Part shown: piece by piece, positions 909-5,753 of the stretch
Position numbering within the stretch: the stretch's first letter is position 1
How the letters are laid out: every line of letters begins with the position of its first letter
From: a virus
Taxonomy: Duplodnaviria > Caudoviricetes
Virus record (IMG/VR): IMGVR_UViG_3300035103_000041
Span: 1-34,598 of that record
Reading direction: 5' to 3' (one strand)
DNA length: 34,598 bases
The notes under the pieces: generated by a model
Seen by the model: only the letters and a program-made list of their open reading frames with translations
Databases searched by the model: none
What the model was told of the DNA's origin: nothing
Program-made: the position numbers and the translations under genes

Positions 909-984
909 CTGGGTGTGGCGCAGTTGGTAGCGTGCTTGACTGGGGGTCAAGAGGCCGGAGGTTCAAGTCCTCTCACTCAGACCA
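909..984 (+). tRNA. tRNA-Pro(GGG), intact; presumed attL-side integration target
   Basis: Acceptor CTGGGTG/CACTCAG+ACCA; anticodon arm CTTGA-CTGGGGG-TCAAG; T loop TTCAAGT. Confidence 0.95.
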
Positions 985-1042: not shown

Positions 1043-1064
1043 TTGTAAGCCACTTGTTAGCCAC
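1043..1064. repeat. Tandem 11-bp direct repeat, candidate integrase arm-type binding sites
   Basis: TTGTAAGCCAC / TTGTTAGCCAC adjacent to the integrase stop, the position expected for att arm sites. Confidence 0.5.
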
Positions 1065-2091
1065 CGATATCTATTTTGTTTATTTCGTCATGTAAAAATT
1101 CATACTCTGCATGGCCGTATGTGGTGACGCTGAAAGCAAAATCTTTATGCCCCATCGTCTTTAATATGGCTGTATCATTGCATCCGGAGTTTATCATAAG
1201 TGATTCTAAGGTGTGGCGACACTTGTGAGGCGTGAGCTTGCGCACTCCCGCGGCTTTTAGTGCATCGTAGTAGAAAGCCTTGCGGAAGTTATCGGCAGTG
1301 TATGCGCCGCCGTCAGGCTTGCACAGCAGCGTTTCACCGTTTAGCGATACAAAGTACTCCAGATATTTGCGGATTGCTTTATGCACAGGGACAGGCCTAT
1401 TAATGCCTGCCTCTGTTTTGCTGCCGCCGCGGATTATCTGATTTTCTATATCATAGTTAAAGCGTGTGAGCTGCAACGCGGCCGATACCCTGAAACCAAG
1501 AAATATCATTATTAGGATTATTTTTGTGACATGATCGGAGTCGTGTTTTATAAGCTTTTGTATCTCAAGGCGTGTAAAGTTTTCTTTTTCGGCTTTGGTT
1601 TCCGTCGGCAGCTCTATAAAATCAGCATAGTTTTTATTGCATATATCCATTTGCATTGCATAGCTATAGAGCATGCTCACAAGCGTGCGCACCTTTTGCA
1701 AGCTCGAATGGCTTAATTCCAGTCCGTCTATTATGGCCTGATAATGGGCCGTCCGCAGGTCGTTGAATTTTTTATTTTGCAGTGGTGAAAGTTTTAAATA
1801 TGCGGCTTTATAATTGTCCGCTGTGGCGGGCGTTATCTTCTTATACTTGGCGGCGCTCCACTCATCGTACAGCTCTTTGAGCTTGATATTAGGCCGCTCT
1901 GTAGGCGCTATATCATACAGCGTGAGCTCTTGGAGTGCTTCCTTCTTAGTGGCATGGGTAGTGACGCGACGGCGGCGTTTGCCGTCCTTGTCGTAGCCCA
2001 GCGTGATAGATGCCGCCCACGGTTTGCGGCGGCGCCCGGATAGTTTATAGACGCTACCTGCATTGTTGGGGCGTTTCATTGGTTTTGTCAT
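1057..2091 (-). CDS. int: Phage tyrosine integrase
   Basis: 344 aa; N-terminal arm-binding-like 'GSVYKLSGRRRKPW'; catalytic R (GFRVS), K (GSKT), HxxR (HKCRH), H (MGH), Y (TTYGH). Confidence 0.95.
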   Translation of the reverse strand: MTKPMKRPNNAGSVYKLSGRRRKPWAASITLGYDKDGKRRRRVTTHATKKEALQELTLYDIAPTERPNIKLKELYDEWSAAKYKKITPATADNYKAAYLKLSPLQNKKFNDLRTAHYQAIIDGLELSHSSLQKVRTLVSMLYSYAMQMDICNKNYADFIELPTETKAEKENFTRLEIQKLIKHDSDHVTKIILIMIFLGFRVSAALQLTRFNYDIENQIIRGGSKTEAGINRPVPVHKAIRKYLEYFVSLNGETLLCKPDGGAYTADNFRKAFYYDALKAAGVRKLTPHKCRHTLESLMINSGCNDTAILKTMGHKDFAFSVTTYGHAEYEFLHDEINKIDIGG

Positions 2092-2535: not shown

Positions 2536-3477
2536 TTAATCCGTCACCATATCGTAAAAAACGTTTTCCGATATGATAATTAAATCCTGACCTTTTAAAA
2601 TATATTCCTGTGCTTTCTTTTGCTTACTGCTCATGCCACCTTTTATAAGTGGGTTATAATCATTATTGCCCAATACTAAAATATTAGTGCTTTTATTAAC
2701 TCCATTTTGGCAGAGTGCACCGAGGTTCGCGGCGAGCTGCGCGGCTTCTTTTCTTAGCATGCGTTCAAGAACACCAGTAAAAACTATGTTTTGTCCGTAC
2801 AGAGGATGGCTCATATCGAAATCATCAGTGTCGGCGGATATTTCGCGCAGGTCTGCGGCTTTGGAGCGGTATGCAGATGTTGTTTTTTGAAAAACTTCGG
2901 ATAAGTCTAAATTATTACTTATTACATAGCCATTCATATAGTCCAGCAGGTCTTTTGTATACTGGCAGTCCGCGACAGCTCTATGCTGGGTTCGCTCCGG
3001 AAGATTGAATTCATTTATAAGAGACTTCATGCTATGTGAATGCAGGTCTTTAAAAAGCCAGCGGCTTAGTCTAAGCGTACATACAAAATCATTTGAAAGC
3101 GGCAGGTCTAATTGCTTCATCATATTATCATATAGAAAATTTATATCGAAGTTTACATTATGACCGACGATTATTTCGCCGTAGGTAAAATCCATAAAAA
3201 AGGGAATGACTTCACTTATAACAGGTGCGTTTTTCAACTCAAGATTTGTGATGCCTGTAAGCTCTGATATAAAGTCGTCTATAAGTCTTTGAGGATTTAC
3301 CAAAGAGCTGAACTGCTCTGTGATTTTATTATCACGGACTTTTATTGCCCCTATTTCTATTATAGAGTCATATCTTGGGTCTAGCCCGGTTGTTTCAATA
3401 TCGACTAATGTGTAATCTGTGGGGAATTTTAATAAGCTTTTTCCTTTAAGCGGACGTTTGTCTGATTTTGGCATCAT
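2536..3477 (-). CDS. DEDDh 3'-5' exonuclease (DnaQ/epsilon-like) fused to a C-terminal BRCT domain
   Basis: ExoI VDIETTG, ExoII GHNVNFD, ExoIII HRAVAD; BRCT-like 'GQNIVFTGVL..RKEA...LGA....V.KSTNILVLG...SSKQKKA'; SD AGGAGG. Confidence 0.9.
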   Translation of the reverse strand: MMPKSDKRPLKGKSLLKFPTDYTLVDIETTGLDPRYDSIIEIGAIKVRDNKITEQFSSLVNPQRLIDDFISELTGITNLELKNAPVISEVIPFFMDFTYGEIIVGHNVNFDINFLYDNMMKQLDLPLSNDFVCTLRLSRWLFKDLHSHSMKSLINEFNLPERTQHRAVADCQYTKDLLDYMNGYVISNNLDLSEVFQKTTSAYRSKAADLREISADTDDFDMSHPLYGQNIVFTGVLERMLRKEAAQLAANLGALCQNGVNKSTNILVLGNNDYNPLIKGGMSSKQKKAQEYILKGQDLIIISENVFYDMVTD

Positions 3478-3578
3478 TTAACCTCCTGTATATATAAGGA
3501 TATTATATAAAACACTAGTGACTTTTTCCAGTGTTTTACTACAAAAACAAATTATAAATTATAAAATGTACCAAAATA

Positions 3579-3592
3579 AGAACATACGTTTG
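3579..3592. promoter_or_regulatory. Candidate LexA/DinR (SOS) box
   Basis: AGAAC-ATAC-GTTTG fits the Firmicutes GAAC-N4-GTTY consensus; lies between the divergent exonuclease gene and the 39-aa ORF. Confidence 0.65.
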
Positions 3593-3625
3593 CGTAAAAT
3601 GATAATACGAAGTGAGGAAATTGAT

Positions 3626-3745
3626 ATGAAAGATAAAATAATTGAACTTTTAGGTGAATTATCAGATGAAGAATTAGAAAAAATCAATTGCATTATTACG
3701 GGTATAATTATGTCTCATGATCTAAATCAGAAACAATCTTCTTAA
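3626..3745 (+). CDS. 39-aa acidic helical peptide, putative SOS-controlled antirepressor
   Basis: SD GAGGA then ATG 3626; MKDKIIELLGELSDEELEKINCIITGIIMSHDLNQKQSS; overlaps the repressor 3' end convergently by 38 nt. Confidence 0.6.
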   Translation: MKDKIIELLGELSDEELEKINCIITGIIMSHDLNQKQSS

Positions 3746-4076
3746 AAAACTCCATAAATTTTTTTCTATCATCATCGGGCAATAATAGAAAGTTCCTTAT
3801 TACTATCTCGGTTTCTGCGTCCATAGAATTGGATTTATAGCCGAGAAGTGTAAATAAATCAGTAGGCTTTCTAAACATTTCGCCTCTGCCATCACGCAGC
3901 CATTCTTCATTTACGTTAAATTCGTGACACAAAAGCATAATGCTAGCGTCCGACATATTATTTATACCTTTTTCAATTTTAGATACTGCGCTTTTTTTCA
4001 TGCCTATTTTTTTGCCAAACTCTTCTTGACTTAAATGCAGAATCTTTCTGAGGGAATTTATTCTTTCGTTTATCAT
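3708..4076 (-). CDS. CI-like XRE-family HTH repressor (122 aa, no S24 autoprotease domain)
   Basis: HTH_3 motif 'RINSLRKILHLSQEEFGKKIGMKKSAVSKIEKG...FNVNEEWLRDGRGEMF'; SD GAGG favours the ATG at 4076. Confidence 0.9.
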   Translation of the reverse strand: MINERINSLRKILHLSQEEFGKKIGMKKSAVSKIEKGINNMSDASIMLLCHEFNVNEEWLRDGRGEMFRKPTDLFTLLGYKSNSMDAETEIVIRNFLLLPDDDRKKFMEFFKKIVSDLDHET

Positions 4077-4105
4077 ATGTGCCTCTTTCATGAATTTTCA
4101 ATATT

Positions 4106-4133
4106 ATTATAACACAAATGTATATTAAATCAA
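4106..4133 (-). promoter_or_regulatory. Leftward (repressor) promoter
   Basis: Minus strand TTGATT, 16-bp spacer, extended -10 TG-T-TATAAT; overlapped by the inverted repeat AATGT-N11-ACATT (4117-4137), a candidate operator. Confidence 0.65.
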
Positions 4134-4141
4134 CATTTTCA

Positions 4142-4170
4142 TTGACAAAGTGTATTATATATATTATTAT
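4142..4170 (+). promoter_or_regulatory. Rightward early lytic promoter
   Basis: TTGACA (4142-4147), 17-bp spacer, TATTAT (4165-4170), back to back with the repressor promoter. Confidence 0.75.
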
Positions 4171-4212
4171 GTGTATGTAAGAAACAAAAGTGACCGTGAA
4201 AGGAACTAAATT

Positions 4213-4356
4213 ATGCCTGATAAGAATGATGAAAAAAAAGATTCTGAATTTATAAATCAAATGTTTAAAAAACTTTCTCGCGAAAAGAAAGAGCGCGTAC
4301 GCGGCTATCTTGAGGGCATAGCAGCCCACAGCGAGCAGAACAACAAATCAGCTTAA
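4213..4356 (+). CDS. 47-aa peptide in the Cro position, no HTH; resembles the repressor C-terminal helix
   Basis: Not in the ORF track; SD AAAGGA; MPDKNDEKKDSEFINQMFKKLSREKKERVRGYLEGIAAHSEQNNKSA. Confidence 0.7.
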   Translation: MPDKNDEKKDSEFINQMFKKLSREKKERVRGYLEGIAAHSEQNNKSA

Positions 4357-4383: not shown

Positions 4384-4617
4384 ATGACACAATCACAGCA
4401 TATCAATCATATAAAAATAAGACCCGAAGAGGCAGGCAAAATAATAGGGGAGTCCGCGCAGTGGGTGCGCGTAGCCATGCAGCAGGGCAGGCTTCCTATA
4501 GGCGCATGCATATACCGTAAGCGGTATTCATACAATATACAGATTAATCTTCTCGCGCAGTATCTTGGCATCACGACTGAGGAATGCGCGAGAAGATTGA
4601 AGGAGGTAGCGGGATGA
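4384..4617 (+). CDS. Excisionase-like/MerR-type HTH DNA-binding protein
   Basis: 'IRPEEAGKIIGESAQWVRVAMQQGRLPIG...YNI' pattern; SD AAAGGA. Confidence 0.65.
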   Translation: MTQSQHINHIKIRPEEAGKIIGESAQWVRVAMQQGRLPIGACIYRKRYSYNIQINLLAQYLGITTEECARRLKEVAG

Positions 4618-5415: not shown

Positions 5416-5584
5416 GGGAGAGTGGCGCAGTGGCAGACGCGGTTAAGAGTGCATTAGCTATCTGTAACATGGTGAGTGCAACAGAGCTGTGTGTCCGGTG
5501 AGCGTTACAGGCAATAGATGCATCCGGTTAAAGGTCAAAAAGACGTAATACACATCACAGGTTCGAATCCTGTCTCTCCCACCG
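5416..5584 (+). ncRNA. tRNA-like RNA with a 115-nt insert in place of the anticodon/variable arms
   Basis: Acceptor GGGAGAG/CTCTCCC+ACCG; D arm GCG-CAGTGGCAGA-CGC; T arm ACAGG-TTCGAAT-CCTGT; insert 5442-5556. Confidence 0.75.
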
Positions 5585-5676: not shown

Positions 5677-5753
5677 GGGAATATAGCTCAGCAGGTCAGA
5701 GCACTTGCCTGATACGCAAGGTGTCCGTGGTTCAAGTCCATGTGTTCCCACCA
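5677..5753 (+). tRNA. Phage-encoded tRNA-Ile(GAT)
   Basis: Acceptor GGGAATA/TGTTCCC+ACCA; D stem GCTC/GAGC; anticodon arm CTTGC-CTGATAC-GCAAG; T arm CGTGG-TTCAAGT-CCATG. Confidence 0.9.

Follow-up and report, generated by a model that had tools for sequence, protein, structure and literature searches.

Two small peptides resembling the predicted dimerisation hook of a short phage repressor: a candidate lysis–lysogeny switch lacking an XRE-type Cro

We have analysed a 34,598-nt stretch of Caudoviricetes DNA (IMG/VR record IMGVR_UViG_3300035103_000041; hereafter the window), the immunity region of which encodes a short repressor and two small peptides, A and B, whose families resemble the two-helix hook predicted to serve as the repressor's dimerisation surface. 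Our preferred reading, to which we assign a probability of about 0.6, is that the repressor of this Clostridia-type prophage is controlled by these two small copies of its hook, peptide A acting as the SOS trigger and peptide B as a lytic lock that replaces Cro. It is built on the observed gene order, domain content and LexA-type box, on the family-level likeness of A, B and the repressor tail, and on their conservation in relatives.

The window is a temperate phage genome, running from a host gene, tRNA-Pro and the integrase through the immunity region and the early genes to those for terminase, portal, capsid and tail. The tRNA-Pro gene (909..984, plus strand) adjoins the tyrosine integrase gene (1057..2091, minus strand; Pfam Phage_integrase, E 1e-14), and from this adjacency it is a candidate integration site. 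A gene for a DEDDh exonuclease with a BRCT domain (2536..3477, minus strand; Pfam RNase_T and BRCT) is divergent from the LexA-type box and is a rival target of it. At least half of the sampled words of the window are contained in 11 oil-field metagenome runs, five of which are possible sources; its DNA was matched at 99% or more in all four runs compared, with no variants listed. Relatives of the repressor come mainly from Lachnospiraceae, Oscillospiraceae and other Clostridia, with some from Lysinibacillus. The search for close relatives of the window's module was negative, the best repressor matches being at about 51-62% identity, and selection was therefore measured on another clade.

The repressor gene (3708-4076, minus strand) starts with ATG behind an AAAGAGG ribosome site and encodes an XRE protein of 122 aa, consisting of a helix-turn-helix (HTH) domain and three C-terminal helices without a peptidase. 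Its only Pfam matches are HTH_3/HTH_19, S24 being absent, in accordance with the original prediction of a 122-aa repressor lacking this domain, the coordinates of which were also right. The same prediction saw no ImmA-like metalloprotease in the module and, indeed, no M78, S24 or AimR-like match exists among the 53 window ORFs scanned. Control of the window by ImmA or by arbitrium was considered and rejected, as such genes were not found in it. The hook (residues 89-115; 3732..3812, minus strand) is the part resembled by A and B, and the structural model places tail helices at residues 87-97 and 101-121. A Foldseek search with this model returned SinR-SinI (1b0n) at rank 2 and phi106 AimC-AimX (9sf2) at rank 4, both with high rmsd and, as far as the model goes, mostly through the HTH. 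The candidate repressor promoter (TTGATT-16-TATAAT with TG; 4106..4133, minus strand) is a consensus match only, and further candidates are located at 4154-4181 and 4072-4101. Palindrome and repeat scans of 4077-4212 gave A/T-rich candidates only, and we claim no operator there. A 13-nt inverted copy (12 of 13 positions agreeing) is common to the exonuclease promoter (3504-3516) and the early lytic promoter (4149-4161), possibly as a shared operator.

Peptide A (39 aa; 3626-3745, plus strand, with a GAGG site) is encoded convergently with the repressor, whose gene it overlaps by 38 nt at the 3' end, and is predicted to be an AimX-like, SOS-triggered antirepressor. A LexA-type box, GAAC-N4-GTTT (3580-3591), is situated 46 nt before its start. 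The motif is the same as that of the published lexA and recA boxes of C. difficile (PMC4234289). The box is the sole GAAC-N4-GTTY of the window at a chance expectation of 1.44, so that by itself it carries no above-chance signal. Scored with a weight matrix derived from 30 boxes found ahead of A genes at other loci, it is nevertheless the best site of the window (17.7 bits, the next reaching 10.2). We give it weight despite its chance-level frequency because of its position, its top matrix score and the enrichment in relatives, where a LexA box adjoins A in 20 of 33 loci but is found in only 4 of 66 loci without A (p 7e-9, kinship ignored); for the other 13 of the 33 A genes, the box is absent within one mismatch. 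The box thus tracks A, whereas the gene beyond it varies widely among loci. The SOS wiring of A is therefore supported, and a 39-aa peptide does lie behind a LexA-type box as originally described. In a plus-strand promoter scan none was found for A with confidence; TAAAAT at 3595-3600 has no good -35 element.

Peptide B (47 aa; 4213-4356, plus strand) occupies the cro position, following a candidate early lytic promoter (TTGACA-17-TATTAT, 11/12; 4142-4170, plus strand) that is a consensus match only. It is an HTH-less helical hairpin and a predicted repressor-titrating lock. Its description as an HTH-less first gene after the rightward promoter proved correct, with zero Pfam matches to the window's B. 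Its model consists of two helices, for which Foldseek gave nothing under E 1 and the ESM Atlas only hypothetical proteins (top score 0.84). Pfam and PHROG scans of 32 B members yielded no named family, and PDB sequence searches with A and B profiles yielded neither a named family nor a SinI match. The B profile search gave 791 clusters at 50% identity, including some false matches (two long top-scoring proteins are unrelated helical repeats); 127 of the 148 matches inspected are of 80 aa or less. In a separate set of matches, the named ones carry the label hypothetical. A protein of phage FP_Epona, AUV56421.1 (L242:1688-1855), is labelled as a DNA-binding-domain protein, and scores 32 bits as a B-family member without an HTH match. 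Locus L091 has two B genes (3001-3144 and 3653-3799), and four proteins (P0149, P0153, P0172 and P0222) contain two tandem B units, an arrangement reminiscent of SlrR with its double hook. Behind B, the next gene (4384-4617, plus strand) encodes a 77-aa excisionase-type HTH protein (HTH_17 at a weak E of 0.054; phrog_6058, E 2e-13), which could carry a Cro-like role. The original term 'Cro-less' hence stands for an XRE-type Cro, but is qualified by this weak excisionase-type DNA-binding HTH.

The likeness of A, B and the repressor tail is clear at the level of families. Comparison of family profiles by hhalign gave E-values of 7.5e-5 for B and tail, 1.4e-3 for A and tail and 1.7e-4 for B and A, and in each case the alignment surpassed all 60 column shuffles as well as reversed targets and the HTH control; with the helical HTH part as the control, nothing aligned. 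Profile-profile comparison against random helices had been named beforehand as the test of the three-way alignment, and its outcome, better than all 60 shuffles, favours the likeness. The profiles align in the register that was first proposed, but the window's own A, taken as a single sequence, is no closer to its own tail than shuffles are (p 0.43). Other single-sequence comparisons gave p 0.001 for B and tail and a modest p 0.012 for A and B. With the window left out of its construction, a tail HMM gave scores of 9.0 bits for A and 8.2 bits for B, each above 50 of 50 shuffles. Sets of A (n=26) and B (n=39) defined by position scored higher than their reversed versions and than other small ORFs (p <=0.013), a conservative test since the small-ORF control set was contaminated by B genes further down the operon. 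No alignment was obtained between A and the full-length repressor profile. At locus L072 the resemblance between A and the peptide in the cro position is plain to see (both with the pattern L...K.NKPK/NPLK.E..KG..[DE]A), which suggests a recent duplication.

Occurrence in relatives was counted over 160 loci, reduced to 110 non-redundant ones, of which 99 had enough flank to be evaluated; the family profiles for this count were iterated on position-filtered matches of the same loci. Of the 99 loci, 81 contain B, which is the first lytic gene in 53 of these, and 33 contain A; the two are found together in 26, leaving 55 (81 minus 26) with B and without A. All but one of 89 B matches are on the lytic strand and upstream of the repressor, and 1 of 1420 reversed decoys passed. 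Small ORFs at both positions in related prophages, the search for which had been proposed as a check, are thus conserved, yet A and B are not an obligatory pair: B is near-universal (81/99), A optional (33/99). The presence of A follows the length of the repressor: it accompanies 32 of 48 short ones (<=135 aa) and 1 of 51 longer, acid-tailed ones. B is found in 46 of these 51 long-repressor loci, one of them with A. Because the profiles had been iterated on the same loci, we froze them before turning to a new set of 80 metagenome loci, of which 29 were non-redundant and 19 could be evaluated; 18 of the 19 contained B (as first gene in 14) and 2 contained A, none out of place. Conversely, a search starting from B led to a divergent family repressor in 75 of 80 loci, and a second one to the same in 42 of 44 evaluable loci (of 48). 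pN/pS, measured in one gut-phage clade on pairs that are not independent, is 0.17 (B), 0.26 (A) and 0.29 (repressor); all three are kept under purifying selection in relatives. Of five cultured phages, Blautia phage Montmirail, Terrisporobacter phage TPDSL_ph2 and phiCD506 combine an A gene with a B-like gene that scores weakly (9-10 bits, below the 11-bit cut); in FP_Epona only B was found, and clearly so, and in Idris, within the stretch examined, only A.

A third family of about 40 aa, tyrosine-rich and probably β-stranded, was identified in 12 of the 110 loci (L003:3558-3680, L046, L055, L170, L174, L184, L201, L202, L212, L216, L234 and L236), each of which has a long acid-tailed repressor and lacks A; 10 of the 12 have it at precisely the site that A would take. 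It is also present in two of the new metagenome loci (L264 and L293). This tyrosine-rich peptide, which has no LexA box, is a candidate for an alternative induction trigger.

To assess the absence of Cro, Pfam was run on 206 ORFs with lengths of 50-140 aa that lie up to 1.3 kb upstream, with 44 B matches left out. An XRE-type Cro gene occurs within this distance in 4 of 110 loci, and an excisionase-type HTH (HTH_17) in 4 of the 206 ORFs, corresponding to 4 loci. Cro-type gene and B are found together in L054, L197, L205 and L230, and a 133-aa gene after B in six loci has a weak HTH_3 match. An M78 protease is the first downstream gene in 1 of 91 relatives. In one gut-phage clade, for which 67 of 75 loci were parsed, 48 loci combine a single tail type and a single B type with five HTH types. 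Whereas a Cro has to change with its operator, B stays constant across HTH types and so appears independent of operator specificity; B as a cryptic Cro is unlikely, being HTH-less and invariant across the five types. One clade includes five loci, among 80, where a different short repressor has taken the place of the cassette and brought its own Cro-type gene (recognised by Pfam as HTH_3 or DUF739 in four of them); B is still present unchanged further down, which means that B can be carried along without its usual partner. Across loci L081-L155, the HTH-operator cassette, flanked by a conserved repressor motif (residues 50-68) on one side and by the B gene on the other, is exchanged, so that one tail occurs with several immunity types.

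Covariation points to the repressor's C-terminal domain as the likely partner of B. Mantel correlations of B with this domain were 0.42 (n=83) and 0.36 (n=89), versus 0.14 and 0.12 with the HTH, and B is closer to the tail of its own repressor than to other tails (p 1e-4; p 0.021 after thinning to n=58). A shared phage backbone, with the HTH cassette being swapped, may produce the covariation, but such ancestry explains the preference of B for its own tail less well. For A, covariation with the tail was 0.26 by pairwise scores (n=36) and 0.04 by alignment columns (n=27), and no preference for its own tail over others was detected (p 0.70 and 0.73). Given the tail, the covariation of A and B is -0.01. 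A role of B as a partner of A only is disfavoured by the 55 of 99 loci that have B without A; nor is A likely to be the main target of B, since 46 of 51 long-repressor loci have B, one of them with A, and no covariation remains once the tail is accounted for.

Complex prediction lends weak support to a contact between the tail and B: the predicted complex scored 0.37 and the best control 0.02, although likeness to the solved SinR-SinI and AimC-AimX complexes may contribute. The mark it passed is also passed by 116 of 157 solved pairs and by 2 of 215 mismatched ones, with 18 solved pairs and both mismatches at or below 0.60. The runs shared at least 94% of contacts with a partner pLDDT of at least 67, at a score level that both passing mismatches also reached.

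The closest known counterpart of the A half is AimX of Bacillus arbitrium phages. In the preprint that describes it (bioRxiv 10.1101/2025.11.23.689978), AimX is a 29-aa ORF directly after a LexA site with a 30-bp antisense overlap; it forms a heterodimer with AimC, as shown by two-hybrid and SEC-MALS, and is likened by its authors to SinI, antisense action of the aimX transcript being unimportant. The AimX-AimC-AimL phages named there are phi106, phiW23 and BMBtp14, with structures 9sf2 and 9iaq. Both systems share a short non-cleavable XRE repressor (80-140 aa by the criterion given there, 122 aa here) and a helical antirepressor (predicted, in the case of A) of 29-80 aa on the opposite strand that overlaps the repressor end, with a LexA site just upstream in phi106; AimX is bound to the C-terminal domain of its repressor, and for the window's A such a contact is predicted. 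The differences are that AimR and AimP are absent here (no TPR/AimR among the 53 ORFs), that the gene upstream of A is the divergent exonuclease, and that the cro position, taken in arbitrium phages by the HTH protein AimL, is occupied in the window by a second, HTH-less tail mimic.

The hook of SinR is mimicked by several small antagonists, SinI and SlrA (PMC3163267, PMC3917956). In this system, slrR is repressed by SinR and SlrR binds SinR, forming a bistable feedback loop; this is, however, a chromosomal biofilm switch of Bacillus subtilis in which SlrR has an HTH and repurposes SinR. The window shares with SinI and SlrA a small protein resembling the two-helix oligomerisation hook of its repressor, with A weak in this respect as a single sequence. 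No SinI homology of A or B was detected in Pfam or PDB, a search whose sensitivity is limited by the short sequences. In TP901-1 and phi13, the first lytic gene encodes the antirepressor Mor instead of Cro, and the lytic state needs direct binding of Mor to CI (PMC11149083). TP901-1 CI, like the window's repressor, has no peptidase domain, and Mor, like B, is the product of the first gene of a lytic operon without Cro; in that account, though, Mor has an HTH fold, binds the N-terminal domain of CI and co-represses DNA, whereas B is a bare hairpin that tracks the C-terminal domain. Both ImmR/ImmA and lambda CI/Cro differ from the window, which has no M78 gene beside the repressor and no S24 in it. 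A resembles, by description only, the antirepressors of Gifsy phages and Tum of coliphage 186, in that an SOS-induced small protein acts against a non-cleavable repressor. Tum is a LexA-controlled small protein for SOS induction of a non-cleavable repressor in a proteobacterial phage. LexA-controlled antirepressors likewise serve for SOS induction of the non-cleavable repressors of the proteobacterial Gifsy phages, as is reported (PMC3121763). The original claim of an undescribed system was consequently too wide, given the published AimX/AimC of phi106 and Mor of TP901-1. In the literature searched, with subscription journals thinly covered, no description of an HTH-less tail mimic in the cro position was found; the A half is already known, and the B family and the Cro-less two-mimic layout are apparently new.

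We propose the following course of events. The repressor would dimerise through helices 87-121, by analogy with SinR and AimC, and shut the 4142-4170 promoter. LexA cleavage would free A which, if it behaves as AimX does, would take the partner's place in the hook and break the repressor dimer. The opened lytic promoter would then yield B, and B would titrate the repressor likewise, a step without direct precedent. With the repressor repressing B and B disabling the repressor, a double-negative loop would arise, and this could be bistable with no competition for operators. During infection, with LexA intact and A silent, B would decide the outcome against the repressor, which fits with the near-universal occurrence of B and with A being replaceable.

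Four rival explanations were weighed. B may bind the tail in the manner of Mor or SlrR, the repressor-B complex repressing the repressor's own promoter, so that B is corepressor and antirepressor at once. Complexes of this kind are formed by TP901-1 CI:Mor (PMC11149083) and SinR:SlrR (PMC3163267), and the linkage and covariation data fit equally; but Mor and SlrR carry an HTH that B lacks, DNA binding is lost in the SinI-SinR and AimX-AimC heterodimers, and B is constant whatever the HTH type, so we consider this unlikely. Alternatively, B could be a stabiliser that binds the tail and strengthens repression, damping leaky lytic expression or aiding lysogeny, or that mops up A. Sequence is silent on the sign of the effect of B, A is slightly closer to its own B than to others (p 0.02, n=27), and a small-residue face is present in B and absent from A and the tail. 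We hold this to be quite improbable: B occurs without A in more than half of the loci, A and B show no covariation beyond the tail, and the published small hook mimics consulted for comparison are antagonists.

The Cro role could instead belong to the excisionase-type HTH gene (4384-4617) or to downstream AntA/Rha-type proteins, with B as a helper or acting in trans on XRE repressors of other prophages or of the host. Cox of P2 and Apl of 186 are excisionase-type HTH proteins in the Cro role, a weak HTH_17 match exists in the window and in four related loci, 5 of 80 loci retain B next to an unrelated repressor, and there are two B genes in L091. This explanation is rather unlikely, as HTH_17 was found in just 4 of the 206 upstream ORFs scanned, and as B heads the lytic genes in 53 of 99 loci and is most like the tail of its own repressor. 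That the likeness is generic to amphipathic helices, the peptides having unrelated jobs and the box controlling the divergent exonuclease gene, would accord with the window's A being no nearer its tail than shuffles and with one box per window being expected by chance. It is very improbable in view of profile alignments that beat reversed, shuffled and HTH controls, the fixed positions of A and B, and a box that goes with A while the gene beyond varies widely.

The titration of the hook by both peptides, if true, lends itself to a wider proposal, which is tentative and in our judgement a little short of even odds. A widespread class of Clostridia prophages would have replaced Cro by the bare tail mimic B, with hook titration deciding between lysis and lysogeny, and would add a plug-in trigger: A with short repressors, another input, perhaps the 40-aa β-rich peptide, with long ones. 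Immunity could then be swapped without re-tuning a Cro. Such a model would account for the choice and maintenance of lysis by many Clostridia prophages, from the gut and the environment, that have neither a cleavable repressor nor a neighbouring ImmA nor a Cro, and would explain easy immunity switching, as only the HTH-operator cassette must change. It would suggest what a large family of 45-65-aa proteins, at present annotated as hypothetical (in FP_Epona, as DNA-binding), probably does, and extend the AimX principle beyond arbitrium phages. The arrangement is carried by cultured phages and is thus testable.

Outside the immunity region, a segment of the window that ARAGORN and Rfam did not call and whose folding z is -1.2 (5417-5583) has tRNA-like ends, with an acceptor stem, a D-arm-like element and a T-arm around an insert of about 110 nt, and lies before the tRNA-Ile gene (5677-5753).
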